Virus record (IMG/VR): IMGVR_UViG_2675903538_000004
Origin: a virus
Lineage: Duplodnaviria; Heunggongvirae; Uroviricota; Caudoviricetes
DNA: 64,000 nucleotides
Strand: one strand, 5' to 3'
Part shown: piece by piece, positions 1 to 32,710 of the stretch
How the letters are laid out: each line of letters starts with the position of its first letter
Numbering within the stretch: the first letter of the stretch is position 1
Translations under genes and position numbers: made by a program
The notes under the pieces: generated by a model
What the model was told of the DNA's origin: nothing
Databases searched by the model: none
The model's input: the letters and a program-made list of their open reading frames with translations, nothing else

Positions 1-501
1 TGCCGCCCTTACGATGTAATTAAATGCAACGTTGCGAGGGCGAGTTTCTGTACCTACATTTCCACTAATTTCACCATAACGTTTAACACTACGAGAGCTA
101 ATAGCTCGTAGTGAGGAAGGCACCTTATGACCGGGTTCGTCCGTTTTAACTATTCCCCCGTCACCGTATGTAGCTAGTATTCCTGGATTTACGCCTTCCC
201 GTGCACTTCCTGCGGCGAGTCCGTCCCCTGTCCATAATTCCATATAGTGTGCATGGTCAAAAATTGTGTGTGGCTGCCAATTAAGCAAAGCGCGGCCAGC
301 ATCCACCCCGCGCCCATCATCCCAACCGCGAATAAATTCTCCCCGTAAATCCGGTAATTTATTGGTGGGGTAGGCTTTTGCCAGTTTGGGATACATTTCA
401 GAAGAAAATGCTGCACCATTGCATTTCAGCCACCCCGTTGGCGGTGTGGCTGAGGGCCACGGAACAGGTACACCAACGGGCAGCGCCGAGCCTTCCCCCA
501 A
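1..501 (-). CDS. tail-fibre receptor-binding cassette 1 (3' end runs off window start)
   Basis: Hand translation of the minus strand from 501 gives GEGSALPVGVPVPWP..GWLKCNGAAFSSEMYPKLAKAYPTNKLPDLRGEFIRGWDDGRGVD...RPRNVAFNYIVRAA with no stop before position 1; same architecture as cassettes 2-6. Not in ORF track because the stop lies off-window. Confidence 0.55.
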   Translation of the reverse strand, partial: MGEGSALPVGVPVPWPSATPPTGWLKCNGAAFSSEMYPKLAKAYPTNKLPDLRGEFIRGWDDGRGVDAGRALLNWQPHTIFDHAHYMELWTGDGLAAGSAREGVNPGILATYGDGGIVKTDEPGHKVPSSLRAISSRSVKRYGEISGNVGTETRPRNVAFNYIVRAA

Positions 502-518
502 ACCAACGTTTTTATGCC
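493..518. other. invertase crossover site A (hix/cix-like, 26 bp, TTCCCCCAAACC-AA-CGTTTTTATGCC)
   Basis: Resembles Hin-family crossover sites (AAACC-AA-GGTTT core); contains stop codon of cassette 2 and TTG fusion codon of cassette 1. Confidence 0.6.
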
Positions 519-940
519 GCCCTTACGATATAATTAAACGCAATGTTACGAGGACGAATGGTTACATAATTAACCCCATCACCTCGTGAAGGCCCTGCAA
601 ATGAAAAACGGGAAAATCCTGGTTGGTTAGAAACAATTTGGTCATAGTTATTGATTGAATGACCAGACCCAATGTCGAAATTACCTCCGTAATGAGAAAA
701 ACTTGTACCATCCTGCCCTGAAAGCAGGGTACGTCCCGCATCAATCCCGCGCCCATCATCCCAGCCACGGATAAATTCACCGCGTAAATCCGGCAATTTA
801 TTGGTGGGGTAGGCTTTTGCCAGTTTGGGATACATTTCAGAAGAAAATGCTGCACCATTGCATTTTAGCCAGCCAGTTGGTGGTGTTTCTAAGGGCCACG
901 GAACGGGCACACCAACAGGCAGTGCAGAGCCTTCCCCCAA
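512..940 (-). CDS. tail-fibre receptor-binding cassette 2
   Basis: ORF track 142 aa; conserved N-terminal LPVGVPVPWP..GWLKCNGAAFSS..LPDLRGEFIRGWDDGRGID and C-terminal RPRNIAFNYIVRAA (P2 H / Mu S-type tail-fibre C terminus), variable middle; TTG start inside crossover site. Confidence 0.7.
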   Translation of the reverse strand: MGEGSALPVGVPVPWPLETPPTGWLKCNGAAFSSEMYPKLAKAYPTNKLPDLRGEFIRGWDDGRGIDAGRTLLSGQDGTSFSHYGGNFDIGSGHSINNYDQIVSNQPGFSRFSFAGPSRGDGVNYVTIRPRNIAFNYIVRAA

Positions 941-957
941 ACCAACGTTTTTATGTG
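932..957. other. invertase crossover site B
   Basis: TTCCCCCAAACCAACGTTTTTATGTG; same orientation as the other sites. Confidence 0.6.
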
Positions 958-1454
958 GCCCTTACAATGTAATTAAAAGCAACGTTGCGGGGGCGCATTG
1001 ATATCCATGCCCCGGTAAAATTATCCTCTGCCGTCCTTTGAGTGCCTGTTATGGAGTTATCTGATGATGCTGGAACATAATCGCTATTATTTCCTGCTTT
1101 AGGATTAGCAGGGTTTCCAACAGTTATAACAGAATCAGCAGTAGCATAAGCGATACCTACTTTGACATTAGTATTCAGATCGTAACCGTAATAATCCTGC
1201 AAAGCTGTACGAATAAATGTTGCAGTCTGACCACTTAGCAATGAACGCCCTGTATCAATCCCTCTCGAATCATCCCAACCACGGATAAACTCACCGCGTA
1301 AATCAGGTAATTTTAACGTTGGGTAAACCTTTGCCAGATTTGGGTACTTTTCAGAAGAAAATGCTGCTCCGTTACATTTCAGCCACCCCGTTGGCGGTGT
1401 GGCTGAGGGCCACGGAACGGGCACACCAACAGGCAGTGCAGAGCCTTCCCCCAA
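951..1454 (-). CDS. tail-fibre receptor-binding cassette 3
   Basis: ORF track 167 aa; same conserved ends, distinct variable core. Confidence 0.7.
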   Translation of the reverse strand: MGEGSALPVGVPVPWPSATPPTGWLKCNGAAFSSEKYPNLAKVYPTLKLPDLRGEFIRGWDDSRGIDTGRSLLSGQTATFIRTALQDYYGYDLNTNVKVGIAYATADSVITVGNPANPKAGNNSDYVPASSDNSITGTQRTAEDNFTGAWISMRPRNVAFNYIVRAT

Positions 1455-1471
1455 ACCAACGTTTTTATGCC
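1446..1471. other. invertase crossover site C
   Basis: TTCCCCCAAACCAACGTTTTTATGCC. Confidence 0.6.
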
Positions 1472-1932
1472 GCCCTTACGATATAATTAAACGCAATATT
1501 ACGGGGGCGGGTTTCAGATGCTGTACGAACTGAGCGAGAGGCGTCGAATGTCCAGTTATAAGCGCCATAACCCTCAATAATTTCCGTTTCCTTTAGGCCT
1601 GTAGATAATACTTGACCATGTTGACTAAATGGCCCTGAACTAAGTACATCTCTAAAAAGCTGAGTACGCCCGAAAGAACCAACAATATTCTGAATTGCAT
1701 CATTCTGTGCAGATAATAAATTACGGCCAGAGTCAATCCCCCGCCCGTCATCCCAGCCGCGAATAAATTCGCCCCGTAGATCCGGCAATTTATTAGTGGG
1801 GTAAACCTTTGCCAGATTTGGGTACTTTTCAGAAGAAAATGCTGCTCCGTTACATTTTAGCCAGCCCGTTGGTGGTGTTTCTAAGGGCCACGGAACGGGC
1901 ACACCAACAGGCAGTGCAGAGCCTTCCCCCAA
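1465..1932 (-). CDS. tail-fibre receptor-binding cassette 4
   Basis: ORF track 155 aa; same conserved ends, distinct variable core. Confidence 0.7.
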   Translation of the reverse strand: MGEGSALPVGVPVPWPLETPPTGWLKCNGAAFSSEKYPNLAKVYPTNKLPDLRGEFIRGWDDGRGIDSGRNLLSAQNDAIQNIVGSFGRTQLFRDVLSSGPFSQHGQVLSTGLKETEIIEGYGAYNWTFDASRSVRTASETRPRNIAFNYIVRAA

Positions 1933-1949
1933 ACCAACGTTTTTATGCC
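1924..1949. other. invertase crossover site D
   Basis: TTCCCCCAAACCAACGTTTTTATGCC. Confidence 0.6.
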
Positions 1950-2404
1950 GCCCTTACGATATAATTAAAGGCAATATTACGAGGACGGTTTTCATTAGCT
2001 GTTGGCACGACACGAGAGGCGTCGAATCCAAGGTCATCGGTTTTGCCTATATCAGTTGTGTTATTCGGAATTCTCGCAGATCGTGTTCCTGCATCATAAA
2101 AAGCCCCTCTGATTGCATCAAAAGACATGCCAATCCCGCCATCTGCGAACCCCTCAATATTTCTTATTGCATCCCCCTGTGAAGATAATAATTGCCGCCC
2201 GGCATCCACACCACGTCCGTCATCCCAGCCACGGATAAATTCACCGCGTAAATCCGGTAATTTATTGGTGGGGTAGGCTTTTGCCAGTTTGGGATACATT
2301 TCAGAAGAAAATGCTGCACCATTGCATTTTAGCCAGCCAGTTGGTGGTGTTTCTAAGGGCCACGGAACGGGCACACCAACAGGCAGTGCAGAGCCTTCCC
2401 CCAA
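1943..2404 (-). CDS. tail-fibre receptor-binding cassette 5
   Basis: ORF track 153 aa; same conserved ends, distinct variable core. Confidence 0.7.
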   Translation of the reverse strand: MGEGSALPVGVPVPWPLETPPTGWLKCNGAAFSSEMYPKLAKAYPTNKLPDLRGEFIRGWDDGRGVDAGRQLLSSQGDAIRNIEGFADGGIGMSFDAIRGAFYDAGTRSARIPNNTTDIGKTDDLGFDASRVVPTANENRPRNIAFNYIVRAA

Positions 2405-2421
2405 ACCAACGTTTTCATGCT
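2396..2421. other. invertase crossover site E
   Basis: TTCCCCCAAACCAACGTTTTCATGCT. Confidence 0.55.
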
Positions 2422-2921
2422 GCCCTTACGATGTAATTAAACGCAATGTTGCGTGGGCGGTTTTCGTTTGCAGTTGGAACAATTTTTGAAGCATCAAGGC
2501 CAATCACTTTTGGGTAAACAGCGCCGTCTGTCCTTTCTGTCACCATACTTCTGACTAAGGAAAAATAACTATTGTTTGTTGAGGGAGTTAAAGGCACCAC
2601 AGCCCCCTTAAACGAGCCTACTGATTCCCATATTGAATAATTTTCAGTATTTACAGTCTTGAACTCACCATAGATATTACGTATGGCATCACCTTGAGCG
2701 GATAATATTGTTCTCCCCGCATCCACACCACGTCCGTCATCCCAGCCGCGAATAAACTCACCGCGTAAATCCGGCAATTTATTAGTGGGGTAAACCTTTG
2801 CCAGATTTGGGTACTTTTCAGAAGAAAATGCTGCTCCGTTACATTTCAGCCACCCCGTTGGCGGAGTGGCTGAGGGCCACGGAACAGGTACACCAACAGG
2901 CAATGCAGAGCCTTCCCCCAA
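2415..2921 (-). CDS. tail-fibre receptor-binding cassette 6
   Basis: ORF track 168 aa; same conserved ends, distinct variable core. Confidence 0.7.
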   Translation of the reverse strand: MGEGSALPVGVPVPWPSATPPTGWLKCNGAAFSSEKYPNLAKVYPTNKLPDLRGEFIRGWDDGRGVDAGRTILSAQGDAIRNIYGEFKTVNTENYSIWESVGSFKGAVVPLTPSTNNSYFSLVRSMVTERTDGAVYPKVIGLDASKIVPTANENRPRNIAFNYIVRAA

Positions 2922-2938
2922 ACCAACGTTTTAGTCTT
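2913..2938. other. invertase crossover site F (outermost, right half degenerate)
   Basis: TTCCCCCAAACCAACGTTTTAGTCTT; left half and AA core conserved, right half diverged; lies 55 bp from the invertase start. Confidence 0.5.
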
Positions 2939-2992
2939 AATCCCTACCTATACCAACGATGTATTTTTAACTAAACAAAGAGGTTGTTTTTC

Positions 2993-3565
2993 ATGCAAAT
3001 TGGCTACATTCGTGTGTCAACAAATGACCAAAACACAGATTTACAAAGAAATGCACTGAACTGCGCAGGATGTGAACTGATTTTTGAAGATAAAATAAGC
3101 GGAACAAAGTCAGCCAGACCAGGCTTGAAAAAGCTGCTCAGAACCTTATCAGAAGGAGATACGCTGGTTGTCTGGAAGCTGGATAGGCTTGGCAGAAGTA
3201 TGAAACACCTTATCACGCTTATAGAGGAGTTGCGGGAAAAAGGTGTTAATTTCCGTAGTCTGACAGACAGTATTGACACATCAACACCCATGGGGCGTTT
3301 CTTTTTTCATGTCATGGGTGCTTTAGCAGAAATGGAACGTGAATTAATTGTTGAGAGAACACTGGCCGGACTGGCAGCTGCACGCGAACAGGGACGCATT
3401 GGCGGACGTCGCCCGAAGTTGACAAAAGAACAACATGAGCAAATAGCGAGGTTGATCGAAAATGGCTACAGCAGGAAACAGTTGGCAATTATTTACGATA
3501 TCGGTGTATCGACGATTTATCGTTATCATCCTGTAGAGAAGCGCCAAACTCAATCTGAGCTGTAA
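2993..3565 (+). CDS. cin: serine DNA invertase (Cin/Min/Hin/Gin family)
   Basis: MQIGYIRVSTNDQNTDLQ..VVWKLDRLGRSMKHL..GRFFFHVMGALAEMEREL..GRIGGRRPKLT: resolvase catalytic domain plus C-terminal HTH; ATG at 2993 preceded by AAAGAGG (track start 2984 is TTG). Confidence 0.95.
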   Translation: MQIGYIRVSTNDQNTDLQRNALNCAGCELIFEDKISGTKSARPGLKKLLRTLSEGDTLVVWKLDRLGRSMKHLITLIEELREKGVNFRSLTDSIDTSTPMGRFFFHVMGALAEMERELIVERTLAGLAAAREQGRIGGRRPKLTKEQHEQIARLIENGYSRKQLAIIYDIGVSTIYRYHPVEKRQTQSEL

Positions 3566-4000
3566 TTCAAATGCCGCGTCGGTGTAATTTATCTTGATAG
3601 AATAGGTACATTTATCGCGCGGCACATCAATTCGATGTATCTAGCGCCTGCTGGCCGCTAATGAAAACTGTTCTCGAAATGTTGTCCCTAGTCCGAGACT
3701 AGGGTATCACCTCTGGAAAGCATACGCAGAACCTTTTTTAACCCAGGGTGTCCAGCTTTTTTGCTGCTCGCCTTATTCGCAAAAATTAGCTCACATCCTG
3801 CGCTTTCAAGTGCTTTTCACTGCATAGCTGTGTTTTGTTCATTTGTCTATATGCGTACATAGCCTATTAGCATATTTTCTGCCCACTATCGTTATTTATT
3901 GCAAGCTACAGGTTTTAATTAACAAAACCAGTGTGTGTGGAAATCACAAAGTGCATACCGTTCTCAAATGTTGTTCAACTTACTGTTGTATAGGTAAAAA

Positions 4001-4264
4001 ATGACATTTTATGTACATATCGTGATGTTATCCCTTCTTGGTGGGGTGTATTCGTATTTGAGTGGGCTATGTGAAAACCGTTACGAGTCTTCATGCAAGA
4101 AATTGCTGGCCGAATGTATTTCCGCCGTACTTGCTGGCTTTATTGGCATGTATCTCGCGGAATATAAGGACATGAATGAAAGCCTTCAGAGCTGCATGGT
4201 TCTTATTTTCAGCGCCAATAGCAGGCTTATTATTGAAGGTTCCAAAAGTCGGTTGAATAGGTAA
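4001..4264 (+). CDS. small hydrophobic protein, holin-like
   Basis: 87 aa with two hydrophobic segments, upstream of lydA; identity uncertain. Confidence 0.4.
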   Translation: MTFYVHIVMLSLLGGVYSYLSGLCENRYESSCKKLLAECISAVLAGFIGMYLAEYKDMNESLQSCMVLIFSANSRLIIEGSKSRLNR

Positions 4265-4338
4265 GTCTCTTATGCAACATAACCGGTTGAGAAGTTACTT
4301 TGCATACCATTACCTCCTGACAACGTAGGAGGGAACTT

Positions 4339-4668
4339 GTGCTTGACACACAGGAATTAGCTCCAGTTGCTATTGCGCTCCTGCTTTCAGTAATTGGTGG
4401 GATAGGCACGTTCCTGATGGATGTCCGAGACGGTCGCCAGTCTGGCAATTTGTTGGGATTGGTTACGGAGATCTTTGTTGCAGTGACAGCTGGCGCGGTG
4501 GCGTACCTATTGGGGCAACACGAGGGCTGGGAGTTATCAATTACGTACTTAATGGTAACGATAGCCAGCAATAACGGTCATGAGGTGATTTCAGGGATGA
4601 AACGAGTGAATATCGATAGCATTCTGAATGTTCTTACAAGTTTGGTGAAAAAGGGAGGCGGGAAATGA
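4339..4668 (+). CDS. lydA: holin (LydA-like)
   Basis: 109 aa, two TM segments; GTG start after AGGAGGG; position upstream of darA matches P1 (from memory). Confidence 0.65.
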   Translation: MLDTQELAPVAIALLLSVIGGIGTFLMDVRDGRQSGNLLGLVTEIFVAVTAGAVAYLLGQHEGWELSITYLMVTIASNNGHEVISGMKRVNIDSILNVLTSLVKKGGGK

Positions 4669-5108
4669 TTGGCTGGGGTGTATGCGTTCTTGCGTTAGCC
4701 TTAGCCGATCGCTATTTGCTAAAACGCAAGGACATCACGCATTTAGAACTTGGTGATGTGGAAATTAAACCGGGTTTCATCCGGGTGCCGTTCAAATACC
4801 GGTCTAAATTCCCGTTTTTGCGCGGCGCAACGGTCAGATATTGGATCCGCGATGTTCAGAAGCCGACGACAGTGATTGAAGGCGAACAACGTTGTTTGAC
4901 GTCGGCTGAACAGGGCGAAAACAGTGAATGGTTGTACATACCCACTGAATATATGGGTAAAGGAGAGCGACTGTGGCATTTCAACGTCATGGTTACGCAT
5001 GGCGACTCGTTCATTAACCCGTTGTATCGGATTTTCCCTGTTACTCAGCAAATCCGCAGAAGTTACGTAATAAATCTCGCACAGGATGTGTCAGATGACG
5101 AAAAATAA
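4665..5108 (+). CDS. lydB: holin antagonist (LydB-like)
   Basis: 147 aa, start overlaps lydA stop; size and position match P1 LydB (from memory). Confidence 0.55.
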   Translation: MIGWGVCVLALALADRYLLKRKDITHLELGDVEIKPGFIRVPFKYRSKFPFLRGATVRYWIRDVQKPTTVIEGEQRCLTSAEQGENSEWLYIPTEYMGKGERLWHFNVMVTHGDSFINPLYRIFPVTQQIRRSYVINLAQDVSDDEK

Positions 5109-5697
5109 GTATGCAACGGTCGATTTTGACCAGGTTAATGAAAAGGGGCTGAAATCCCTTATCGCGGCGATCAATAAAACCGGTGTTACGGTAATTGAGG
5201 TTGACTCCAGCAACCGCGCAACAACGAAAGATGGCGTTAAAGTTAAAACCGCAAAGCTGGTTCTTAACGACGGACAAATTCTTGCCATACAGGTAAACGA
5301 TACTGGCGATATATCGTCTGTGAGGCTGAATGGAAAAGCTATTCCTAACGCTCAGTCGCCGGATATCAAGACGCTTGGTACCGTCATGGGGCAAGCGGCC
5401 CGCAAAAACTCCGCAAAATTCCAGAAATCACTGATCGCCAAAGCGAAACGTGTTGCCAATCCGGTAGACAAGAAACCGGCAGTAAAATCCAACTTTCAGC
5501 GCCTGCAAGAGGCAAAACAGCGGAATGCTCAGGTGGTTGCCGCTTATAAATCAGCGCAGAACTCGGTGTCTTTCAATCAACAGCAGATCACTGATTTGCG
5601 GGCGAAGCTGGATAAGGAGACAGGCCGACTCAATAACGAAAAGGCCCGAAATGGCGAACTCAAACGCCGTCTTAAGCAACTGAAAGCAGGAAATTAA
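5086..5697 (+). CDS. hdf: Hdf-like protein (shares a motif with DarA)
   Basis: 203 aa; shares AxKNSAKFQ motif with the downstream 639-aa protein; basic coiled-coil C terminus. Confidence 0.55.
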   Translation: MCQMTKNKYATVDFDQVNEKGLKSLIAAINKTGVTVIEVDSSNRATTKDGVKVKTAKLVLNDGQILAIQVNDTGDISSVRLNGKAIPNAQSPDIKTLGTVMGQAARKNSAKFQKSLIAKAKRVANPVDKKPAVKSNFQRLQEAKQRNAQVVAAYKSAQNSVSFNQQQITDLRAKLDKETGRLNNEKARNGELKRRLKQLKAGN

Positions 5698-5698
5698 C

Positions 5699-7618
5699 AT
5701 GGAACAGTTCAATATCAATAAAGGGGTGACGATCAAGCCTGGGCTTGACGTGCTTCCCCCGCCAGTGACTGATGATGAATATCGCGCATTAATGGCCGGT
5801 GAGGACCGCTATCTGATGACGGAATCCAACACCCTGGAGGAAATCGAGGCTACGTTCTTCTATGACACGCCGATCCACTGGTGTGCTACGGATTTACTGG
5901 AGGCGATTAGTTCTACTCGTTTGCAGTTACACCGGACCATGCAGGCATTTGTCCGGGCATTGAACCAGAAGCTGAATGGTACCGGAATCTCTGCGGGGAG
6001 TGATAAAACGGGGGATGTGGCCCAGAGCGGCGCGCGCGCGATCGGCGGCGCTGAAATTGGCCGGGCACGTAACGTTAACGGGCTGCCGGTCTTGCCAGCC
6101 ATTATTCCGCTCAGTGATGGTCAGACTATCAGCATTCTGTTTCATAGCCCGACAGCGGAAAACCGGATCACCAATAGCGATACGCTGGTTGCTTTCCAGT
6201 TCTTACTGAATAAAAAAGACGTTACTCACACCGTTGCTCCGATGAGTGGACGTGATATGACGCTGGCGCAGGTCACCATGAAACTTGCCAACCTTGCAGA
6301 GAAAAACTCGGCAAAATTCCAGCGTGCGCAGAAGAAGAAAAAAGCCCTTGTTGATGAAATAACCCAACTACAGGCTGACAGTGACCAGAAAGAGGATGCC
6401 ATGAGCGACCTCGCGGATCAGGTGGCAGCGGTAGAAGGGCAGAAGGCAGATCTGGAGCAGAAAATTAACGCTGTTGCATCGGAAGCGGATTCTCTTTATG
6501 AAGAGAATGAGCGTTTGCAGACGGAGATTGATCAGCTCAATCGCACTGGTGGGCGCGATACCATTGCTCCAGCGGGGATGACTGGTGGGCACTCTCGCGC
6601 GCTGACGGATCGCCTTGCCAGTATCAAAAATCGTATGCATATGGACGGGGAAGTGACGCTCAGTAATGGTGCATCAATGAAGCAATTCATTGGGGGCGGC
6701 GAAGGGTATATCCAGTTAACCGATCCGGATGGCAGCGTATACATGATCAAGGCTAAATCCATACAGGGTGTGGACATGGCAGATGCGATCGGCAAGCTGT
6801 TTAAAGCCTATAAAGCGGGTAATGTATCGGAATACCTGGTCCAACCAGAAGAACATAAACCGGAAAACGTCGAACCTGAACCAGCGGAGGATACCGGTAG
6901 CTCTTCGCCTGAACCAGAAGTCTCTGTAGGTGCATATCGATATGCCCTGCAAATGCGTCCGGCGGCCCCTGGCGCAATACCTGAAGGTAACAAAGCAATT
7001 CTGCCGCGCCCTGATGAAGGTGACCCGTATTATGAATATGCACGCTACGGCATTGCTACTTACGATACCCCGCTTTCTGATCAGCAAATGAGTGAGTACG
7101 ACCTGAAGTTATTGCCTCGCGAGGATTCTTTCGACTTCCTGGCGAAGACACTTACTAATGGTCCGTTTGGCAAATATTCACAAAAAGCTCTGGAGCTGGC
7201 CACCAGCTCACCAGACGAGTTCCGCGTAATGCTGAAAACTCAGTTTCAAAAAACTTTCCCCAATATTGCGTTTCCTGGGGGCGCTGGCACCGAGAAAATG
7301 GTGCAGAGCATGATCAATGCATTGCAGGCCGAAGTCGGTGAGATTCCTCAGCCAGAACCGGCCCCGGCACAGCCTGATGAAACGGTTAGCGAAGCAGATG
7401 CAGAGGCTAATAAAGCCATTGAATATCTCAATAACGTGATGGATATACAAAGCACTGACATGGCGGAGATCCGTAACGCCCGGGGCAATGTCCGGGAAGC
7501 GATTGCAGCCCTTCAGGCTGCCGGACGTTTTGAGGAAAACGAAGAGCTGGTTAACGGCGCAGCTCGCCACCTGGCTGATCTGTTGGTAGCAATCCAGAAA
7601 GCGGGGGTAGCGGCATGA
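5699..7618 (+). CDS. darA: DarA-like antirestriction / head-internal protein
   Basis: 639 aa, same length and operon context as P1 DarA (from memory); start 1 bp after hdf stop. Confidence 0.7.
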   Translation: MEQFNINKGVTIKPGLDVLPPPVTDDEYRALMAGEDRYLMTESNTLEEIEATFFYDTPIHWCATDLLEAISSTRLQLHRTMQAFVRALNQKLNGTGISAGSDKTGDVAQSGARAIGGAEIGRARNVNGLPVLPAIIPLSDGQTISILFHSPTAENRITNSDTLVAFQFLLNKKDVTHTVAPMSGRDMTLAQVTMKLANLAEKNSAKFQRAQKKKKALVDEITQLQADSDQKEDAMSDLADQVAAVEGQKADLEQKINAVASEADSLYEENERLQTEIDQLNRTGGRDTIAPAGMTGGHSRALTDRLASIKNRMHMDGEVTLSNGASMKQFIGGGEGYIQLTDPDGSVYMIKAKSIQGVDMADAIGKLFKAYKAGNVSEYLVQPEEHKPENVEPEPAEDTGSSSPEPEVSVGAYRYALQMRPAAPGAIPEGNKAILPRPDEGDPYYEYARYGIATYDTPLSDQQMSEYDLKLLPREDSFDFLAKTLTNGPFGKYSQKALELATSSPDEFRVMLKTQFQKTFPNIAFPGGAGTEKMVQSMINALQAEVGEIPQPEPAPAQPDETVSEADAEANKAIEYLNNVMDIQSTDMAEIRNARGNVREAIAALQAAGRFEENEELVNGAARHLADLLVAIQKAGVAA

Positions 7619-7980
7619 CACTATCAGCTATTGAGTTAATGGATCTCAGCGATAAGTTGGATGCTCTGATGTCCAAAGCGGCTACCGCGAGTGGCATGGA
7701 GTTGCTGGATATCAGCGATGAAATTGACCAGATCATGCAACAGATGGGGTACGGCGCGTCCGGCGGTGGTAGTGGCGAGGAAAAACAACCTTCGGAACAT
7801 GATGGTGTGCCAAAACTGGTTGCTGATTTCCTGGCTGATAAATTCGTCGATCAGAGCACCGATGCATTTATCGGTACCTTGCAGGATTTGAGTCAATATG
7901 TTGGCACATACATCGACCTGGACCAGGTTAAACAGCACACTGCGGCATGGATAGCCGCCAACATTAAAGAGGCAGCATAA
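7615..7980 (+). CDS. ddrA: DdrA-like acidic protein
   Basis: 121 aa, acidic, translationally coupled to darA. Confidence 0.55.
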   Translation: MTLSAIELMDLSDKLDALMSKAATASGMELLDISDEIDQIMQQMGYGASGGGSGEEKQPSEHDGVPKLVADFLADKFVDQSTDAFIGTLQDLSQYVGTYIDLDQVKQHTAAWIAANIKEAA

Positions 7981-7992
7981 GGCGTAACAGGG

Positions 7993-10980
7993 ATGAGCTT
8001 AAGCGATCAGGTGGTAATGGCCACCAGCATAGAAACGCTGATCGAGCTGCTAAAGAACCTGCCCGATTATGGGCGGGTTTCGTATGTGGTGACAGCGAAG
8101 GGAGACGAGGTAAAAACAGCGTTTGATATCGTCGATGCCTCAGCTCTTTTGGTATCCAATACTCTGGATGGGAAAATTAATCCTGACTATCCCCAGGAAC
8201 TTCAGCCGCGCGACCGGACCCGCGCATCCAGCCTTCTTCAGGTTAACCAGATATCCAAAGATTTGCGGCCAGCTCAGCTTACTGATTCCGGTTTATCCAG
8301 CCATGGTGCGCCAATAATTGGTGAGGACAATGCCGTTGAGTCAGGTAATGGGCGGACCATGGGGATCATTAAAGCCTATCAGGACGGTAATGCGGATCGG
8401 TATCGGGAGTACCTGATTGAACATGCGACCGAATTCGGCATACGGCCTGAAAAGGTTGAATCAATGACGGCTCCGGTACTGGTGCGCCGCCGGTTAACGA
8501 AGGTTGACCGTGTTCAGTTTGCCAAGGACTCAAATATTTCTGATCTCCAGGAAATGGCAGCCAGTGAAAAGGCTTTTGTTGATGCCGACAGCATAACACC
8601 GGCGATGATGGCGTTGTTTAACCCGTCAGAAAGTGGAGATCTGCTTAGCCGCAGTAATGACGCGTTTATTCGCGGATTTATGACGCAAGTTGGTGCCACA
8701 CAGGCGGCTGGCCTTGTAACTGAAGATGGGCGACCAACACGGCAACTTGTAGACCGTATACAAAACGCGATCTTTGCCAAGGCATATAAGGATGCGCGCC
8801 TGGTAAGGATGGTTGCAGAAGAACCTGATCCGGATATGCGTAATGTTCTGACGGCGCTTAATGCGGCAGCCAATGATTTTGTCCAGATGCAGGCTTTATC
8901 AGGAGAAGCGCACAAGCAGGCTGTGACAACTATTGTTGATGGCATTGAGACAGCGGATAGCCTCGATAAAAAGGCGCTGGCGGCATTGAAAGATGCGGTA
9001 GACCTGGTAAGGCAATCGAAGGAGTCAGGCCAGCATATTACCGATGTTATTGCTCAGGGGGATATGTTCAGCGAAACGGCCCCGGAAGTGAAAGCACTCG
9101 CGTTGTTCATCGTCGCGAATAACCGTAGCGCGAAGCGTATGGCCACCGCCTTTAAGTTGATGGCTCAACGTATCAATGATGAGTTACAGCACCAGGGCCA
9201 GGCGCTGGGGGATATGTTTGGCGGCGGCGATGTGTCGTTACAGGATATCCTTCGCCAGGTGTCTCAGGAACTGGAAAACGAAGGCATGCAAGGGATATCC
9301 GGCGGTCTTTTCGAGTCCGTTTCCGGCGGTAGTTACAACGGTGTTGCTCCGTATACCAGTTTGCTATTACATCGGGCATCCGGCATCAAAGACATTATTC
9401 ATCTGATCAGGCTGCTTTCCCGCACAGATCCCCAGGATGAACAGCTTGTACAAGTGCTTGCGCATTTTGTTCGAATGCCTGTTGCCGACGTGAAAAAATG
9501 GTGCCGATTATTCGGTATCAGCAATTCGTTACTTCGCGGCTTGTTAAATCACGCATCCTCCCTTGGGCGCGATGGCTTTGACGAGATAGCGCAGGCGATA
9601 AAAAACGGAGATATGCCACCAGCTATTGACTGGTTTTCCATTCGCCCAACCAGGGTGAAAGCATTCCTTAGCGCGGCGCATTCGGCATCACCATTGGCAG
9701 AAATGGTTCAGAGGTTGTCGCTCATATTCACAGACCATACCGCGTTGGTTGATCTGACTCTGGACGAGATGAAAGAAGCCTCCATTCAGTGGGCCGATCG
9801 ACAAAATGAGGTTAACTCAGACTTCTTGCCAGCATTCAGGAAGGCCGTTAGTAAAGCGGATGATGCCCGTGGAATTCTGAAGGCATTTAAGGCATTGCAA
9901 AGTCGTGTTAATAAACATGTCGGTGATATCGATGGGGTAACGGCGGAAGGCCGGGATATTCTTAAAGAGCACGGCATAACGCCAGAGTTTATTGATGAGA
10001 TCAGGACTGATATGCAGCGTGAGGTCGTATCGTCCCTGCAAATCGTAGCCAGAGCGTTGGCGGATGCTAATCCGAAGAGTGCGGCCATTGTTAACCGGGT
10101 TATTGGTGATATTGAAGCATCGGAGGGCATGGGGGCGCTGAAACTCTTCCTTTCGCGAGCGTTTAATCCTAACGGCAATATTCTCCCTGGCATTATTGGT
10201 GAGGCTAAAAAGTATGTCAGTGAAGAAGAACTTGAGCAGCTTGACCAACTACTTAAGCGATTCTCATATAACCCGCAGATACGCTGGCAAATGAATCAGC
10301 GAAGTATGGGTTCGGTCCACGAGAAAGTGTTATCTGCCATGAACAGTGCGATCGCAAACTCATCCGTATCTGAAGAAAAAGCTCTTGAGTGGGCCGACTC
10401 TTTTATCACAGAAGAAGTGGAAGAAGTCCGCGCTGGACAGAATGGTGGGATAGACCTGCGCAAGGAACTTGCTGATATTTATCGCCTGACCGGCGGGAAA
10501 ATATCGACCTTATCAAAGGTAGTTCACCACCAGGGAAGGGCATATGCAAATCTTAATGGTGTTGTTGCTGTCAATTTGAACGATGAAAATGCAAGTGCAC
10601 TGTGGCACGAGCTGGGTCATCATCTTGAGTACAGTAACCCTGGTTTGTTAGAGAAAGCCCGGTCATTCCTGAAGTCCAATGTTGAAGGGGATAAGCCATC
10701 TTTCGTCAATATCGGTGGGCGTGGCAAGCCTGAATGGTGCTTCAGATCTCGATTGAGTAATATTTATATGGCGAAGGTATACCCGCCAGCCTCAGTAAGT
10801 AACACCGGGAAAATTCGGCAGAAATCACCGACTATTTCCAAAACGTCAGCAACGGAAGTATTCTCTATGGCTCTTCAGTTGTATCATGACAAAGAGGCCG
10901 CTGCCGCATCACTGATGAATGGTGACGGATTGCTGGAACTGTTATTAGGTGTGGCAAAGGAGCTAAATAATGCAGATTAA
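7993..10980 (+). CDS. ddrB: DdrB-like large Dar-operon protein
   Basis: 995 aa downstream of darA/ddrA; size matches P1 DdrB (from memory). Confidence 0.6.
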   Translation: MSLSDQVVMATSIETLIELLKNLPDYGRVSYVVTAKGDEVKTAFDIVDASALLVSNTLDGKINPDYPQELQPRDRTRASSLLQVNQISKDLRPAQLTDSGLSSHGAPIIGEDNAVESGNGRTMGIIKAYQDGNADRYREYLIEHATEFGIRPEKVESMTAPVLVRRRLTKVDRVQFAKDSNISDLQEMAASEKAFVDADSITPAMMALFNPSESGDLLSRSNDAFIRGFMTQVGATQAAGLVTEDGRPTRQLVDRIQNAIFAKAYKDARLVRMVAEEPDPDMRNVLTALNAAANDFVQMQALSGEAHKQAVTTIVDGIETADSLDKKALAALKDAVDLVRQSKESGQHITDVIAQGDMFSETAPEVKALALFIVANNRSAKRMATAFKLMAQRINDELQHQGQALGDMFGGGDVSLQDILRQVSQELENEGMQGISGGLFESVSGGSYNGVAPYTSLLLHRASGIKDIIHLIRLLSRTDPQDEQLVQVLAHFVRMPVADVKKWCRLFGISNSLLRGLLNHASSLGRDGFDEIAQAIKNGDMPPAIDWFSIRPTRVKAFLSAAHSASPLAEMVQRLSLIFTDHTALVDLTLDEMKEASIQWADRQNEVNSDFLPAFRKAVSKADDARGILKAFKALQSRVNKHVGDIDGVTAEGRDILKEHGITPEFIDEIRTDMQREVVSSLQIVARALADANPKSAAIVNRVIGDIEASEGMGALKLFLSRAFNPNGNILPGIIGEAKKYVSEEELEQLDQLLKRFSYNPQIRWQMNQRSMGSVHEKVLSAMNSAIANSSVSEEKALEWADSFITEEVEEVRAGQNGGIDLRKELADIYRLTGGKISTLSKVVHHQGRAYANLNGVVAVNLNDENASALWHELGHHLEYSNPGLLEKARSFLKSNVEGDKPSFVNIGGRGKPEWCFRSRLSNIYMAKVYPPASVSNTGKIRQKSPTISKTSATEVFSMALQLYHDKEAAAASLMNGDGLLELLLGVAKELNNAD

Positions 10981-11278
10981 AATCGCAGCGCCATTAGGTG
11001 GAGATGCCATTATCGAATTTGATGATAATGAAGAAGTTTCCGGGCGTTTAAGCATTATCTCCGGTGACATTACCGAGGACATGATCGCTGAAGCCATAGC
11101 TGGGGCAAATCCCAATAGCTATATGGGATTCGTTAACACCCTTGATGCTCCCGCAAGTGATGTTCTCCGAACGCTGCATCTTTACGCTGGCTGGTTTGTT
11201 GATTGGCCAGCAGTAGATGGTGGCGATGAGGACGACGACGATGATTTTGGTGATCATGTAGACCAGATCGTATATTGA
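10970..11278 (+). CDS. small acidic protein, last gene of dar operon
   Basis: 102 aa, overlaps ddrB stop, followed by terminator. Confidence 0.5.
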   Translation: MQIKIAAPLGGDAIIEFDDNEEVSGRLSIISGDITEDMIAEAIAGANPNSYMGFVNTLDAPASDVLRTLHLYAGWFVDWPAVDGGDEDDDDDFGDHVDQIVY

Positions 11279-11283
11279 AGAAA

Positions 11284-11309
11284 TCCCGCCACTCGGCGGG
11301 ATTTTTTTT
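11284..11309. terminator. bidirectional rho-independent terminator
   Basis: TCCCGCC-ACTC-GGCGGGA hairpin followed by T8; sits between convergent genes. Confidence 0.65.
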
Positions 11310-12090
11310 AATCGCTTTCCACTTCTTCCGTGGTGTTTTCTTGCAGTTCTGTTAATGCAGCACGACATAGGTTCCGGGCATTGGCTATAGCCACACTTTT
11401 GACTTCATCCGTCATCGTGCAGGTAATGTACTGATCGAGTTCTTCAGCGCGGATGATGCTTTTGCCAATCAGAAACTGTATTTGCCAGAGCAGATCGGCA
11501 TCCATAATCAGAATTTCTGCCGGGCCTTCAGGGCCAGCCGGGAAGGAAACATAAGACTGTTTGCCCAGGCCGACAACTCGACAACTTGCTTCAAGAATTG
11601 CGCGCTTGAGGTCTGACTTTATAACGGAAACAGGTTGATTTTCACCAGTGATTACGCCGTTGACATGGAAAGGCATGTAGCTTGAAATACGCTCCACTTT
11701 CCACACGCCAGCAAGCGATCCTTCATGCAGCACAATGGGGGTAACCGCGAGTTTCATCTCACCATATAGCTGCTGGCAGATAGCTGGATTGCTGAATACA
11801 TCTAAAGGCTCACATTCAAACAGCGGCGCAATCTGCATGAGGTCCATCATGGTCATCCCTGGGGTACGAGCAGTAATGAATCTGCGCATACCAGTATCCA
11901 TTGCGCTCCAGATTGCTACACCATGCTTTTTGCTCACTTCTTCAGTAAAGCCAAGGTGGCACATGATGGTTTTTTCGATAGCCAGATCAGAGATCGAAAC
12001 CTTTTCGCCAGGCACACCATCATTATTGATGGTCACTTCGACACTCTGACCATTACGCAGGCGGTATTGAATTGCTTTAGTATTTTCCAC
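11308..12090 (-). CDS. hypothetical protein
   Basis: 260-aa ORF, no recognised domain. Confidence 0.55.
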   Translation of the reverse strand: MENTKAIQYRLRNGQSVEVTINNDGVPGEKVSISDLAIEKTIMCHLGFTEEVSKKHGVAIWSAMDTGMRRFITARTPGMTMMDLMQIAPLFECEPLDVFSNPAICQQLYGEMKLAVTPIVLHEGSLAGVWKVERISSYMPFHVNGVITGENQPVSVIKSDLKRAILEASCRVVGLGKQSYVSFPAGPEGPAEILIMDADLLWQIQFLIGKSIIRAEELDQYITCTMTDEVKSVAIANARNLCRAALTELQENTTEEVESD

Positions 12091-12096
12091 GTTAAA

Positions 12097-12774
12097 TCAC
12101 TCCACTACAAACCAGTCACATGCCAGTAAGTCGCCTACAGAAGGAACCCACGGAACAACTACACCTTGTGCATTTTTTAAGGCGAAATAAGCACCATACG
12201 GAACGAGGTCGCCGGGGAAATATCCCTTAATGGCTTCCATTCGTGCCGGGTACTGTCCTTCAGGAACCAGCCAGCAGAATTGGTTTTCGCCGTTCCACCC
12301 GCGTCGAGCAACTTTCTTGCCATCCTTCAGCCACATCAGCGCGTCAGAAAAGTCGGCTGCTTCAAGGTCGATTTCTTCTTGTGTGGTAATGATGCCACTG
12401 GCAGCAATAGTTACGTCCCTGGCTGTAATGAATGTCACCCCATTGTGACCTTCAATACTGAGCGATACCCCATTTTCGAAGAAGTCGTTAGTCCGACTAA
12501 AGCCTTCTTCAAATGTTTTTTCTGGTGAATAGGACAGAGATCCGTCCTCATAAGCGACCAGATATCCGCCAATTTCTGGTCGGTGTTTTTGCAAAAACAT
12601 TTTATCAACATGGACTTTTACCCCTTCTGGCTCAACGACTTCGATGTTGCAAAAAAGGACCACATCCATTAGGGCGATAATTTCGATATCTTTGATTTTT
12701 GAGGCGCGAACTGTTTTATGGCTTTTGTATTTTGGAAGTGCCGTCAAAAGCTCTTTCGTTGTCATGTTATTCAT
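12097..12774 (-). CDS. DUF2829 (Tad2-like) C-terminal domain fused to an unknown N-terminal domain
   Basis: C terminus ALMWLKDGKKVARRGWNGENQFCWLVPEG..YFALKNAQGVVVPWVPSVGDLLACDWFVVE fits the DUF2829 pattern; ATG at 12774 (MNNMTTKELL) preceded by GAGGAAAG; track start 12942 probably too long. Confidence 0.6.
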   Translation of the reverse strand: MNNMTTKELLTALPKYKSHKTVRASKIKDIEIIALMDVVLFCNIEVVEPEGVKVHVDKMFLQKHRPEIGGYLVAYEDGSLSYSPEKTFEEGFSRTNDFFENGVSLSIEGHNGVTFITARDVTIAASGIITTQEEIDLEAADFSDALMWLKDGKKVARRGWNGENQFCWLVPEGQYPARMEAIKGYFPGDLVPYGAYFALKNAQGVVVPWVPSVGDLLACDWFVVE

Positions 12775-12971
12775 AGTCTTTCCTCTGCTTAAAACCTGAT
12801 GTATTGCGCCTTCAGGTGGGGCAGGAATGTTTTCCCACCAGCGAAAGCAATATCTCGGGGTGTTCTTTTCGTGAAAAGCGCGTGCCATTGCCAACTTTGG
12901 CGTTTGTTTGCGAGTTCGTGCTTTTGTCGGCGTCTGGACCACCGCTTTTCTTTCAGTCGTTTTTTACACAT

Positions 12972-31225: not shown

Positions 31226-32710
31226 TTATTCATTAAGCCATGCCAGAGCTTCATCAACCTGCGCTTCGTCTTCGACGCTAAGCACTTCATCCTGGGGAAC
31301 ATAATCAGCCAGCATAGCGAAACAATATGTATCCCAATGGTCTGGTGAGTGCAGGTTGAGTTTTTTCTTCATATCCTCCTTACTCATCACCTTCCATTGA
31401 CCTGCGGAGTTAATCCCTACAGGGATTTTCGACGCTTCCTCAATAGTTTCATTACCCTTATCCAGTCTCATACGACCAGATTTTACGGCCTCTGCGGCTT
31501 GAACGTTGGCATAAGCACGTTTATCAAAGTACAGGCTCTTATCTTCACGGCTATGCATCTTTTTACCCCAGCGTATACGCTGTACGGTAATACCATAATA
31601 CTCGTACATCAGATCCGCCGTTGCTTTACCCAGGCCATCGCCGTCTATCGCTATGGTGATATTTGGGAATCGCTCAGGATTACATTCTGCGAAAATTTTG
31701 GCGGCAAGCTGCGTTTCTGTAACGTCTGTGTATTCCAGCATTCGATAGTTGATTACACGGCGTTTATTTCGCTGGCCGGACACCATCATGATATTGATAA
31801 CGGACTTATCCCGTCCCGTACCACCAGCAACGTCCACACATGCAAGCCAGCCCCATCCTTTTGCAATCTTGACTTTCCGCCGCGTTGCACGTTCAACCTC
31901 ATCACGTCCAAGAAGGAAGCCATCCTGTGATTTAGGGAATAGGCCGCGTACCTTAATCATGTACATAGGGTTATCACGCCCGCCGTACTCCGCCAGCTTC
32001 ATTTTGATAAAAGCTGGCGTTACCAACGGTGATTCCTCACTGTTAAGCGTGATCGCCGTATAAACGCCATCAGGGTTACCAGGACGCTTGGCCAGTTTAT
32101 GGTGTGTATCGTAGAAATAGCCGCTTGGGCGTGTAGGCTGTGACAGCAATAAGATGCGGTTATCCTGTCCGGTAAGAGCACCGGTGATGATACCGAAAGC
32201 TCTATCACTGACACCGGAGGCTTCATCGATAATATACAGAAGATGATCTGCGTGTTCACCGGCGAGAGCTTCTTCACTTCCCAGACGAAAGCCCTTCGGT
32301 ACTACAGTCCATACACCTTTACCAGTAATCTCATAGAAAGCGGTTTCTGTCAGAACAAAATAATCAGCAAGCCATGGGAAACGGCTGGTGGCAGTAGCCC
32401 AGTTTATCTTGATGTACTTGAATATACCGGTCATTACCTGCTGAATTTTGTTCGCAACGATAATGGCACGGGCACCTGGATACATGATTATGAACAACAT
32501 GATCATGATAGAAGTCATGTCTGATTTCCCGGTACCGTGACCAGACGAAACAGATGTCTTGCTACCCTGTTCCTGCACAGACTCAATAATCAGATCCTGC
32601 TGCCAGGTAGGTGTTTTGCCGAACAAAACATCAGCGGCCGCAATCCAGTCATAACGATATAGCGCCACCAGCTCGCGCCAACGTGGATCCGTTACGCAAC
32701 TTCTGGCCAT
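31226..32710 (-). CDS. pacB: terminase large subunit (PacB)
   Basis: 494 aa; Walker A GHGTGKS; convergent with c1. Confidence 0.85.

Follow-up and report, generated by a model that had tools for sequence, protein, structure and literature searches.

The window, by which we mean the whole 64-kb stretch of DNA that was analysed, begins with a row of tail-fibre cassettes read on the minus strand, separated by 26-bp sites and followed by the gene for a serine DNA invertase and a cin-like pseudogene (Table 1).

Table 1. Coordinates of the features described in the text, with the basis or description of each.
Feature	Position	Strand	Basis or description
Seventh crossover site, remnant	1..4	+	TGCC = site positions 23-26; rest lost at contig end
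Silent tail-fibre C-terminal cassette	1..501	-	167 codons from TTG, running to window position 1; stop off-contig; translation LGEGSALPVGVPVPWP...RPRNVAFNYIVRAA
Mix-type crossover site A	493..518	+	TTCCCCCAAACC AA CGTTTTTATGCC; one mismatch against published p15B mixMr''N'
Silent cassette, 142 aa, Phage Tail Collar domain	512..940	-	ORF and Pfam
Crossover site B	932..957	+	TTCCCCCAAACC AA CGTTTTTATGTG; identical to published p15B mixN''O'
Silent cassette, 167 aa, Collar domain	951..1454	-	identical copy joined to constant gene part in L011
Crossover site C	1446..1471	+	TTCCCCCAAACC AA CGTTTTTATGCC; one mismatch against mixMr''N'
Silent cassette, 155 aa	1465..1932	-	ORF list
Crossover site D	1924..1949	+	TTCCCCCAAACC AA CGTTTTTATGCC; one mismatch against mixMr''N'
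Silent cassette, 153 aa	1943..2404	-	ORF list
Crossover site E	2396..2421	+	TTCCCCCAAACC AA CGTTTTCATGCT; carries TGA stop
Silent cassette, 168 aa, Collar domain, adjoins fixed flank	2415..2921	-	ORF and Pfam
Boundary crossover site F	2913..2938	+	TTCCCCCAAACC AA CGTTTTAGTCTT; cassette left half plus fixed flank L'; identical to p15B mixMl''L'
Min-type serine DNA invertase gene, 190 aa	2993..3565	+	transcribed away from array; Pfam Resolvase and HTH_7
Homologue of the annotated recombinational enhancer of P1 cin (its nt 19-90)	3011..3082		sequence identity
psi-cin, truncated cin-like pseudogene with promoter region	3701..3962	-	points toward array; 89.7% identical, one gap, to P1 31570-31832

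Crossover sites and silent cassettes

Searching with the full 26-mer TTCCCCCAAACCAACGTTTTTATGCC (up to two mismatches, chance expectation 0) returned matches at 493, 932, 1446, 1924 and 2396, all on the plus strand, and the 15-nt core CCAAACCAACGTTTT gave six mismatch-free matches, adding 2913-2938, with 6/6 on the plus strand against 0.2 expected. When aligned, each of the six consists of TTCCCCCAAACC, a central AA and a right half, the 26-bp limits being taken from homology to known sites and not from conservation within the window. The single orientation of these sites, stated in an earlier note on this DNA, was upheld: no minus-strand copy of the 26-bp site occurs in the whole 64 kb, and neither the constant-gene type of site (right half GGTAATCAAGAA) nor a site with a degenerate left half turned up in searches of the 64-kb window. 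The non-palindromic central dinucleotide AA is present in all six window sites and in 123/123 sites of the relatives considered below. The left halves fit the Din-family site consensus, and the right halves keep only GTTT of it, as the published mix sites do. Left and right halves pair at 5 of 12 positions in every one of the six sites, site F being no worse than the others, and the right half of site F (CGTTTTAGTCTT) departs from the internal sites in its outer 6 nt only.

The array is cut by the contig end, which coincides with window position 1. The reverse complement of locus L014 (labels of this form denote the loci compared here) is identical to window positions 1-12921, and L014 begins at base 1 of contig LOIS01000045.1. 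The remnant of a seventh site was recognized from the alignment of window positions 1-40 with 515-554, the sequence directly past the TTA of site A.

Site positions 20-22 read TTA (minus-strand TAA) in sites A-D and TCA (TGA) in site E, and these stop codons belong to the minus-strand cassettes at higher coordinates (512-940, 951-1454, 1465-1932, 1943-2404 and 2415-2921, respectively). The proposal that the right half holds the stop codon of the upstream cassette is therefore accurate for sites A-E and does not apply to site F, which has no upstream cassette. Positions 7-9 of the left half are CAA (minus-strand TTG) in all six sites, in frame with the following cassette. The spacings between sites are 439, 514, 478, 472 and 517 nt, and because all of them equal 1 mod 3, every cassette is shifted by +1 relative to its neighbour, in agreement with the claim that successive cassettes lie in different frames.

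The position of this TTG bears on whether the cassettes could be small genes in their own right, with the TTG of each as its start codon and the 26-mers as merely conserved gene starts and ends. The mechanical ORF list does begin each cassette at TTG, and the RefSeq annotation of related plasmids shows separate CDSs named 'phage tail protein'. However, the codon is TTA, which is no start codon, in 40 of the 123 sites of the relatives; the frame remains open upstream of the TTG across the site (...KNVGLGEG); and the upstream sequence, AAAACGTTGGT, is without a Shine-Dalgarno sequence. Moreover, the cassettes start in the middle of the Collar domain region, without an N-terminal attachment part, and in relatives the tail-fibre genes, 576-950 codons long, have the same cassettes as their in-frame 3' parts. 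We consider independent translation hardly credible. The TTG singled out earlier is present as described, but it is a leucine codon, two codons past the codon holding the crossover dinucleotide, and not a special fusion or start codon. Annotation routinely gets such silent cassettes wrong, presenting each as a 'phage tail protein' gene in its own right that starts at a Leu codon.

The six window cassettes all differ from one another and follow a common plan, in which a Collar domain is followed by a variable tip and a conserved RPRNIAFNYIVRAA end. All six recur elsewhere at 97-100% identity, in other positions and in both orientations, three of them in the expressed position. The protein of the 1-501 cassette is identical in L011, L013, L015 and L017, at other array positions, and that of the 512-940 cassette in eight other loci (L001, L002, L004, L006, L007, L010, L011 and L013), with a 99.3%-identical copy joined to the constant gene part in L004. 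For the 1465-1932 cassette, L008 has an identical copy on the tail-fibre strand, and identical copies on the invertase-side strand are found in L011, L015 and L016. L010, L011, L013 and L015 have identical copies of the 1943-2404 cassette, both orientations being represented and the neighbours differing, and the 2415-2921 cassette is found in 24 public contigs, in varied array positions and both orientations, with a 97.6%-identical copy joined to the constant part in L002.

Correspondence with the Min system of p15B

The Min system, its mix sites (six in number) and the way in which a variable tail-fibre gene is put together were reportedly worked out around 1990-1992 by Sandmeier, Iida, Arber and co-workers for p15B, a plasmid of E. 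coli 15T- (GenBank X62121). When compared with the published mix crossover sites of p15B, six in total, sites B and F match exactly and sites A, C and D are one base off mixMr''N'. These matches and the adjacent invertase bear out the Hin-family type assigned to the sites earlier: they are crossover sites of the Hin/Din family and belong to a tail-fibre switch that works by multiple inversion. The literature describes the Min shufflon as a system of multiple inversions for tail fibres, driven by a serine invertase.

The invertase carries the Pfam domains Resolvase (2.1e-51) and HTH_7 (3.4e-15), is 74% identical to P1 Cin over 186 aa, matches the Gin structures 3uj3/4m6f with E about 1e-91, and is 100% identical to WP_001165547.1 of related plasmids. 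From site F through the invertase and the cin pseudogene to the lyd genes, the window is collinear with the p15B record X62121 at a constant offset, the window coordinate plus 3446 giving the X62121 coordinate at three landmarks. This collinearity, together with the 98.5% identity to Min reported for the invertase of a related plasmid, suggests that the window invertase is Min. The identities to P1, namely 83.1% (3017-3087), 89.7% with one gap (3701-3962) and 99.8% (4282-4848), are the same as those given in the notes of the P1 record. According to such a note, the position of psi-cin, which carries an in-frame stop, corresponds to X62121 7147-7408. LydA, LydB and DarA lie downstream of the invertase, as in P1, and the flank is matched by 848 P1-like plasmid records. 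The enhancer homologue aligns without gaps and at 80.6% identity with the enhancer annotated at 31678-31749 in the P1 record, compared with 64% across the rest of the gene. Under a strict consensus, one Fis-like motif was matched in this candidate enhancer (GCGCAGGATGTGAAC at 3063-3077), of the two expected.

The likeness to p15B thus extends from the crossover-site sequences (two identical, three one base off) to the fixed flank L', the invertase gene read away from the array, the cassette stop codon inside the right half-site, and the enhancer homologue, psi-cin remnant and lyd genes at base-exact same spacing. The isomer type with a run of direct sites adjoining the invertase is also shared, the published p15B isomer having five such sites (order of its Table 4). 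In contrast to the six sites of p15B in total, no fewer than seven direct sites lie on the invertase side alone in the window element, which therefore has at least eight or nine in all. The length of the cassette adjoining L' also differs from that of its p15B counterpart. No evidence contradicting the Min assignment was encountered.

Positions 1-2938 almost certainly represent the silent half, next to the invertase, of a Min-type region of multiple DNA inversion, or 'tail-fibre shufflon', carried by a p15B-like, P1-family plasmid prophage of E. coli. The array belongs to an already known system, Min having been described around 1990, and its discovery value is low, as the window sites hardly differ in any base from the mix sites published for p15B.

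Array layout and junctions among related plasmids

We compared 15 related plasmids or contigs with 123 sites. All arrays with both ends in the fetched stretch begin at an R' site in the constant gene and run in one orientation up to a gap of about 1581 bp, the 1.58-kb segment M, which carries the only tail-fibre assembly gene; beyond M, a run in the opposite orientation ends at L' adjoining the invertase. Where a contig or record end truncates an array, the part that remains fits this layout, without exception. The number of sites per array ranges from 2 to 17, L003 being a two-site version with the same invertase; multi-site relatives have 7 to 17 cassettes, and complete plasmids have direct-site runs of 3 to 11. 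The constant gene part, segment M and any inverted sites of the window plasmid lie off-contig, and its full system is reconstructed from these relatives. Related arrays carry 1 to 9 inverted sites, and several inverted partners are to be expected for the window sites, not the single off-window partner that had been supposed.

The right half of site F is identical in all 14 relatives that reach the invertase-side array end (the fifteenth, L012, stops short of it and was left out of this count) and in p15B. Site F, which adjoins the invertase gene, is indeed the array boundary, but its right half, previously called degenerate, is the conserved fixed flank L'. At the other end of the layout, the tail-fibre gene of L002, L004, L006 and L008 (...SVL(D/E/N)YLGLGEGSALPVG...) continues across the R' site without a change of frame and ends at a stop codon in the site that follows; the constant gene reads in frame through such a site into a cassette, and fusion at the AA core keeps the frame, as had been predicted.

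Inversion isomers, compared between strains, show identical cassettes at different positions and orientations, segment M both ways (L005 versus L006 and L010), and breakpoints at the sites. Where the same cassette is preceded by different upstream DNA (145 site pairs), divergence begins at site position 15 or beyond in 140 pairs; where the same upstream DNA leads to different cassettes (426 pairs), the last difference lies at position 7 or before in 388. Breakpoints between shuffled cassettes fall at site positions 8-14, around the central AA, and the junctions of natural isomers accordingly map inside the 26-bp sites, as anticipated. Polymorphic positions 7 and 19/21 lie on the 'wrong' side of the junction in 5 of the 145 and 34 of the 426 pairs. 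They are unexplained by strict exchange at AA and could reflect point mutation or conversion among 270-bp repeats.

Each site lies within such a repeat, a conserved stretch of about 270 bp (-200 to +65) in direct orientation, and the copies share exact runs of 29-157 bp. Repeats of such length would suit an array that serves as a store of cassettes and is drawn on chiefly by RecA-dependent homologous recombination or by gene conversion, with inversion at the 26-bp sites playing a minor part. The variation in array size among relatives and the exact duplicate cassettes in some records, neither of which is producible by inversion alone, point the same way, as do the few polymorphisms at positions 7 and 19/21 that fail to co-segregate with the flank. 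Nevertheless, we judge this reading very improbable: the breakpoints cluster in the invariant 7 bp AAACCAA and are not spread across the 270-bp repeat; exchange between direct repeats deletes cassettes without changing their strand, yet cassettes occur in both orientations, always within the common layout; and an intact, fully conserved invertase with its enhancer homologue adjoins the array. Homologous recombination probably acts beside site-specific inversion, as a source of cassette gain and loss, and not instead of it. The 270-bp direct repeats are still substrates for RecA-mediated deletion. The protection from deletion that the earlier note ascribed to direct orientation consequently holds against invertase-mediated events, but not against homologous recombination at exact runs of up to 157 bp.

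The cassette order in the window comes from a draft assembly and might not reflect one molecule. The six-site row could in part be an assembly product, a chimeric contig path through mixed isomers whose order and number of cassettes do not exist on one molecule. The window begins at the end of draft contig LOIS01000045.1, exactly within a site; other work reports that such loci break or confuse assemblies, contigs ending or turning chimeric within the arrays; and the exact duplicate cassettes in mirrored positions in the complete records L001, L004 and L008 suggest a chimeric consensus. We regard an assembly origin as unlikely, however, given that the six window cassettes are all different and that complete plasmids have runs comparable to the present one. 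In addition, any real isomer has the cassettes on the invertase side of M in the present orientation, and for this reason the direct orientation is independent of assembly. It is conceivable, though we hold it to be improbable, that the mirrored exact duplicates are real products and not assembly chimeras, and that array size rose from the 6 sites of p15B to 8 or more in the present element, and to as many as 17 in relatives, by integron-like cassette capture or duplication via mix sites. One example of a capture route would be Min recombination, either intermolecular or at direct sites, between P1-like plasmids and prophages that share a cell.

Proposed inversion mechanism and comparison with other systems

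In the mechanism we propose, each small segment is one promoter-less 3' cassette encoding a tail-fibre C-terminus, its 5' end supplying the strong left half-site TTC[CT]CC[CT]AAACC and its 3' end the weak right half-site CGTTTT[TC]ATGCN, with the cassette stop codon inside. Every 26-bp site then combines the 5' end of one segment with the 3' end of another or with a fixed flank, R' within the constant tail-fibre gene part or L' next to the invertase gene, both of which are 3'-type ends; segment M (about 1.58 kb), with the only tail-fibre assembly gene, has 5'-type ends on both sides. Because the flanks are 3'-type and M is 5'-type at both ends, cassettes between M and the invertase must lie on one strand with direct sites, and those between the constant gene and M on the other. 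The direct orientation necessarily follows from this segment polarity and not from a separate protective design.

By analogy with Hin, Gin, Cin and Min, the Min serine invertase, aided by host Fis bound to the enhancer in the 5' part of its own gene, would pair one site from each run, that is, inverted sites, and cleave the central AA/TT, leaving a 2-nt stagger. The intervening block, which would always include M, would be inverted; with the R' site as a partner, a new cassette would be joined in frame to the constant part, and may thereby alter the receptor-binding tip and the host range. Direct sites within a run would not be efficiently recombined by the enhancer-dependent wild-type enzyme. 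Inversion systems have been found to favour inverted over same-oriented sites, and in the case of Hin, only Fis-independent mutants delete and invert equally.

The P1 Cin/C-segment and Mu Gin/G-segment systems resemble the window array in their invertase family (74% identity to Cin and the Gin structure match), in the 26-bp Din-type site with an AA or GA core, in the enhancer, in the window a candidate one, within the 5' part of the invertase gene, and in the joining of a constant 5' gene part to alternative 3' parts; the genomic neighbourhood is also shared with P1. In P1 and Mu, two sites offer a choice of two alternatives, each supplied with a separate assembly gene (U and U'), whereas the Min-type array has many sites, many cassettes and a single assembly gene confined to M. 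Relative to P1 cin, the window invertase gene is inverted, with a cin remnant left beside it. P1-like phage-plasmids, which also spread resistance genes, have tip repertoires far exceeding the two states of the textbook P1 switch, and this bears on their potential host range.

The R64/IncI shufflon (Rci, pilV) and the bifidophage Rin shufflon are likewise built from a constant 5' part and several invertible 3' cassettes, with asymmetric sites and inversion favoured over deletion. They use tyrosine recombinases, however, acting on sfx or 11-bp rix sites, whereas the window enzyme is a serine invertase. A tyrosine-recombinase shufflon of the R64 Rci type was ruled out for the window, on account of the serine-type recombinase next to the array and the Din-type 26-mers that make up its sites. 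The target differs as well, being a phage tail fibre and not a pilus adhesin.

A p15B-type Min region at a contig end

The window carries the silent, invertase-proximal side of a Min multiple-inversion region, or 'shufflon', in a plasmid prophage of the P1 family and p15B type, Min being the serine-invertase system of plasmid p15B (X62121). To compare the two regions, we took site sequences and conventions from a secondary table of Din-family sites, which gives six p15B mix sites (PMC3241671), and from the notes of the P1 GenBank record. The published mixMl''L' (TTCCCCCAAACC AA CGTTTTAGTCTT) is identical to site F of the window and mixN''O' (...CGTTTTTATGTG) to site B, while mixMr''N' (TTCCCCTAAACC AA CGTTTTTATGCC) is one base from sites A, C and D; the right half of the constant-gene site is GGTAATCAAGAA. 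The P1 record also notes three stretches similar to p15B, with coordinates and identities, which we recomputed against the window. The recomputed identities equal those noted for p15B and the offset to X62121 is constant at 3446, so from site F outward the window runs collinear, base for base, with the Min region published for p15B. The Min region of the window is already known in all essentials. In the published p15B isomer, five direct sites lie by min and a single inverted one at the constant gene (Table 4 order; PMC3241671), six sites in all, whereas the array in the window is somewhat larger and continues past the window with at least one further direct site.

The window begins where an assembly stops. 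Positions 1-12921 are exactly the reverse complement of bases 1-12,921 of LOIS01000045.1 (GCA_001607815.1, draft contig, 92,187 bp), which was retrieved through the 168-aa cassette, and since this match reaches the start of that record, window position 1 is the contig end. The end cuts through a seventh crossover site, leaving only its TGCC (window 1-4). The off-window inverted partner of the earlier note is therefore not to be sought just past position 1, where the assembly broke. Assemblies commonly break at such inversion loci, and this one evidently failed to cross the inversion array. A search of complete E. coli genomes, plasmids and phages found none in which at least 80% of window 1-3600 is covered.

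Features of the Min region in the window (sites are given by their first position; the domain scan covered the three cassettes for which a domain is listed)
Feature	Position	Strand	Remarks
Cassette	1-501	-	open frame
Site A	493	+	
Cassette	512-940	-	open frame; Phage Tail Collar domain
Site B	932	+	
Cassette	951-1454	-	open frame; Phage Tail Collar domain
Site C	1446	+	
Cassette	1465-1932	-	open frame
Site D	1924	+	
Cassette	1943-2404	-	open frame
Site E	2396	+	
Cassette	2415-2921	-	open frame; Phage Tail Collar domain; 168 aa
Site F	2913	+	15-nt core match
Serine invertase gene	2993-3565	+	190 aa; Resolvase and HTH_7 domains
Putative enhancer, by homology	3011-3082		homologous to P1 cin enhancer
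Fis candidate	3014-3028		end G and C present, centre C
p15B-like stretch	3017-3087		83.1% to P1, gap-free; X62121 6463-6533
Strict Fis-consensus match	3063-3077		
Truncated cin-like pseudogene and promoter region	3701-3962	-	toward array; 89.7% to P1 31570-31832, one gap; X62121 7147-7408
Second enhancer-like stretch	~3784-3855		within the pseudogene
p15B-like stretch	4282-4848		99.8% to P1; X62121 7728-8294

Crossover sites and the junctions of natural isomers

Searching the 64-kb window with the 26-mer TTCCCCCAAACCAACGTTTTTATGCC returned sites A to E with at most two mismatches, and the 15-nt core CCAAACCAACGTTTT returned six exact matches, adding site F, where the chance expectation is essentially zero. 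All six lie on one strand, in agreement with the earlier note, and share the format TTCCCCCAAACC-AA-right half. No copy in the opposite orientation was found in the 64-kb window, with probes that included the constant-gene site type and a degenerate left half. The spacings (439, 514, 478, 472 and 517 nt) are each 1 mod 3, so that neighbouring cassettes are offset by one frame, as had also been proposed. Each cassette has its stop codon (TAA; TGA at site E) in the next site, at positions 20-22. The proposal that the right half-site holds this stop is thus correct wherever a cassette precedes, but not at site F, where the right half is flanking DNA. This half had been described as degenerate, but it is the fixed flank L' by the invertase gene, invariant in 14 relatives and p15B, which rules out a decaying site. 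Its agreement with the left half, 5 of 12 positions, is equal to that of the internal right halves. Each 26-bp site is embedded in a direct repeat of ~270 bp (about -200 to +65), in which the conserved 3' end of one cassette adjoins the conserved 5' part of the following one, with common exact runs of 29-157 bp.

All six cassette translations contain LGEGSALPVGVPVPWP...RPRN(I/V)AFNYIVRA(A/T). Every one of the six cassettes occurs in other plasmids at 97-100% identity, at different positions and in both orientations, and three are seen joined to the constant part of the tail-fibre gene in relatives. Single cassettes (window 1943-2926) also resemble, at 89-91% identity, the 3' ends of tail-fibre genes from phages of 31-38 kb (Salmonella phage MET_P1_103_31, Escherichia phage SKA5), and of the 5426 complete E. 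coli genomes, 1465 have matches, mostly chromosomal, to the array region; tips thus appear to be exchanged among unrelated prophages.

Recombination junctions were located by comparing all site pairs in 16 loci, two cassettes being taken as the same at 99.5% identity or more over 260 nt. Where the same cassette follows different upstream DNA (145 pairs), divergence starts at position 15, 21 or later in 140 pairs and at position 7 in five. Where the same upstream DNA joins different cassettes (426 pairs), the last difference lies at position 7, 4 or deeper in the cassette in 388, at position 19 or 21 in 34, and four show no difference in the scanned stretch. These comparisons place the breakpoints within the invariant AAACCAA (positions 8-14), central AA included, and hence inside the 26-bp sites, as the earlier note had expected. 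The polymorphism fails to co-segregate with the flank expected from strict exchange at AA in 5/145 and 34/426 pairs, exceptions that are best read as point changes or recurrent mutation, or as short conversion tracts among the long repeats. The only polymorphic site positions across the related arrays and the window's own contig are C/T at 7 and T/C at 21 (TAA versus TGA), and it is these positions that the exceptions involve.

Array layout, site orientation and reading frame

We compared 15 related arrays, from eight complete plasmids (L001-L008) and seven contigs (L010-L013, L015-L017), with 123 sites, in all of which (123/123) the central dinucleotide is AA. A single layout is present in every array with both ends fetched, and arrays cut by a contig or record end show the corresponding part. 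It starts within a long tail-fibre gene, at a site with the right half GGTAAT(C/T)AAGAA (GGTATTCAAGAA in L006), and proceeds through a run of sites in the same orientation to a gap of ~1581 bp. This gap contains the sole tail-fibre assembly gene together with two cassettes in opposed orientation, and corresponds to the p15B M segment. A run in the opposite orientation follows, finishing at CGTTTTAGTCTT beside the invertase gene. As the opposite run comprises 1-9 sites in relatives, several inverted partners are expected, rather than the single one that had been assumed.

Site totals in complete plasmids range from 2 (L003) through 7-10 up to 17 (L001), and in the multi-site arrays one chaperone serves 7-17 different tips. 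The results are of use for annotation, for assembly and with regard to the size of the tail-tip repertoire in P1-like phage-plasmids. The M segment occurs in both orientations (L005 versus L006 and L010), so that in some isomers the chaperone gene runs antisense to the tail-fibre gene or converges with it, with silent cassettes between the two. This assembly gene is present once per array (L002 12429-13040, L005 2814-3425, L006 10140-10751, L010 7765-8376). In the close relative L003 (NZ_CP040920.1, 13869-15671), an identical invertase is accompanied by just two sites, and the assembly genes are another pair, of P1-like type; plasmids with nearly identical backbones therefore carry either a two-site or a multi-site version. 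Whole cassettes duplicated exactly at the DNA level, often mirrored across M, occur in L001 (NZ_CP135665.1; one cassette four times, another three times), L004 (NZ_LR890538.1) and L008 (NZ_AP042698.1). Since inversion cannot create them, they need another source, either real duplication or chimeric consensus assembly of mixed isomer populations.

The layout also accounts for the direct orientation of the sites. Of the two ends of each small segment, one is 5'-type (left half) and the other 3'-type (the stop-bearing right half). Both fixed flanks are 3'-type, and M carries two 5'-type ends. With this polarity, all cassettes between M and the invertase point one way, and direct orientation is a consequence of the system that holds for every isomer. 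The cassette order in the window could be chimeric, coming as it does from a draft assembly, but this leaves the orientation argument unchanged.

In L002, L004, L006 and L008, the tail-fibre gene reads ...SVL(D/E/N)Y-L-G-L-G-E-G-S-A-L-P... unbroken across the inverted site, with its stop within the next site. On the coding strand the crossover dinucleotide reads TT and supplies bases 2 and 3 of a CTT codon, followed by GGT and then TTG; exchange at the core thus preserves the frame, and the read-through confirms what the earlier note had deduced. The in-frame TTG to which that note drew attention is present at positions 7-9 of the left half, but it is simply a Leu codon, two codons past the junction, and reads TTA in 40 of the 123 sites. 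The TTA variants and the open frame upstream rule it out as a start codon and, together with the in-frame fusions, exclude the possibility that the cassettes are independent small genes starting at TTG. RefSeq annotates every silent cassette of the relatives as its own 'phage tail protein' CDS (for example L001 1739-10168, L002 11009-15407), starting at the TTG codon or, where the codon is TTA, at a later start. These separate CDSs are artefacts of annotating 3' gene segments that lack a promoter.

Invertase, enhancer and gain or loss of cassettes

The invertase is 100% identical to the recombinase of related plasmids and 74% identical to P1 Cin, and its nearest solved structures are those of Gin. 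Downstream of it lie genes for LydA-type holins, LydB and DarA, and the 21 kb downstream has matches in 848 P1-like plasmid records, the best at ~99% identity. In the P1 record, nt 19-90 of cin are annotated as the Cin enhancer. Its homologue in the window is gap-free, with 80.6% identity versus 64% over the rest of the gene, and codons for the same amino acid are identical to those of cin at 11/20 positions versus 43/114 elsewhere. It also contains ATTTA, similar to the A/T-rich segments reported between the sites of the Hin enhancer. Because the Fis-consensus scan gave a single strict match, we propose the stretch as an enhancer by homology only, with a putative function.

Wild-type enhancer-dependent invertases strongly favour inverted sites, and in Fis-independent mutants deletion is as frequent as inversion. 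Given this known behaviour, the claim that the direct array is protected from deletion should hold for the invertase route. It does not extend to RecA, since the exact repeats, reaching 157 bp, offer more than enough length for deletion by homologous recombination. The varying array size among relatives indicates that gain and loss of cassettes do occur, and these changes in copy number are probably due to homologous recombination. That the array is purely a RecA-driven reservoir is nevertheless contradicted by breakpoints that cluster tightly, by cassettes that switch strands and by the one layout common to the arrays.

Beyond the invertase gene, the truncated cin-like pseudogene has ~175 nt of coding sequence before it ends, and it contains an in-frame stop, reading ATATAG where P1 has GTATCA. 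Its presence points to replacement of a P1-type cin by an oppositely oriented min.
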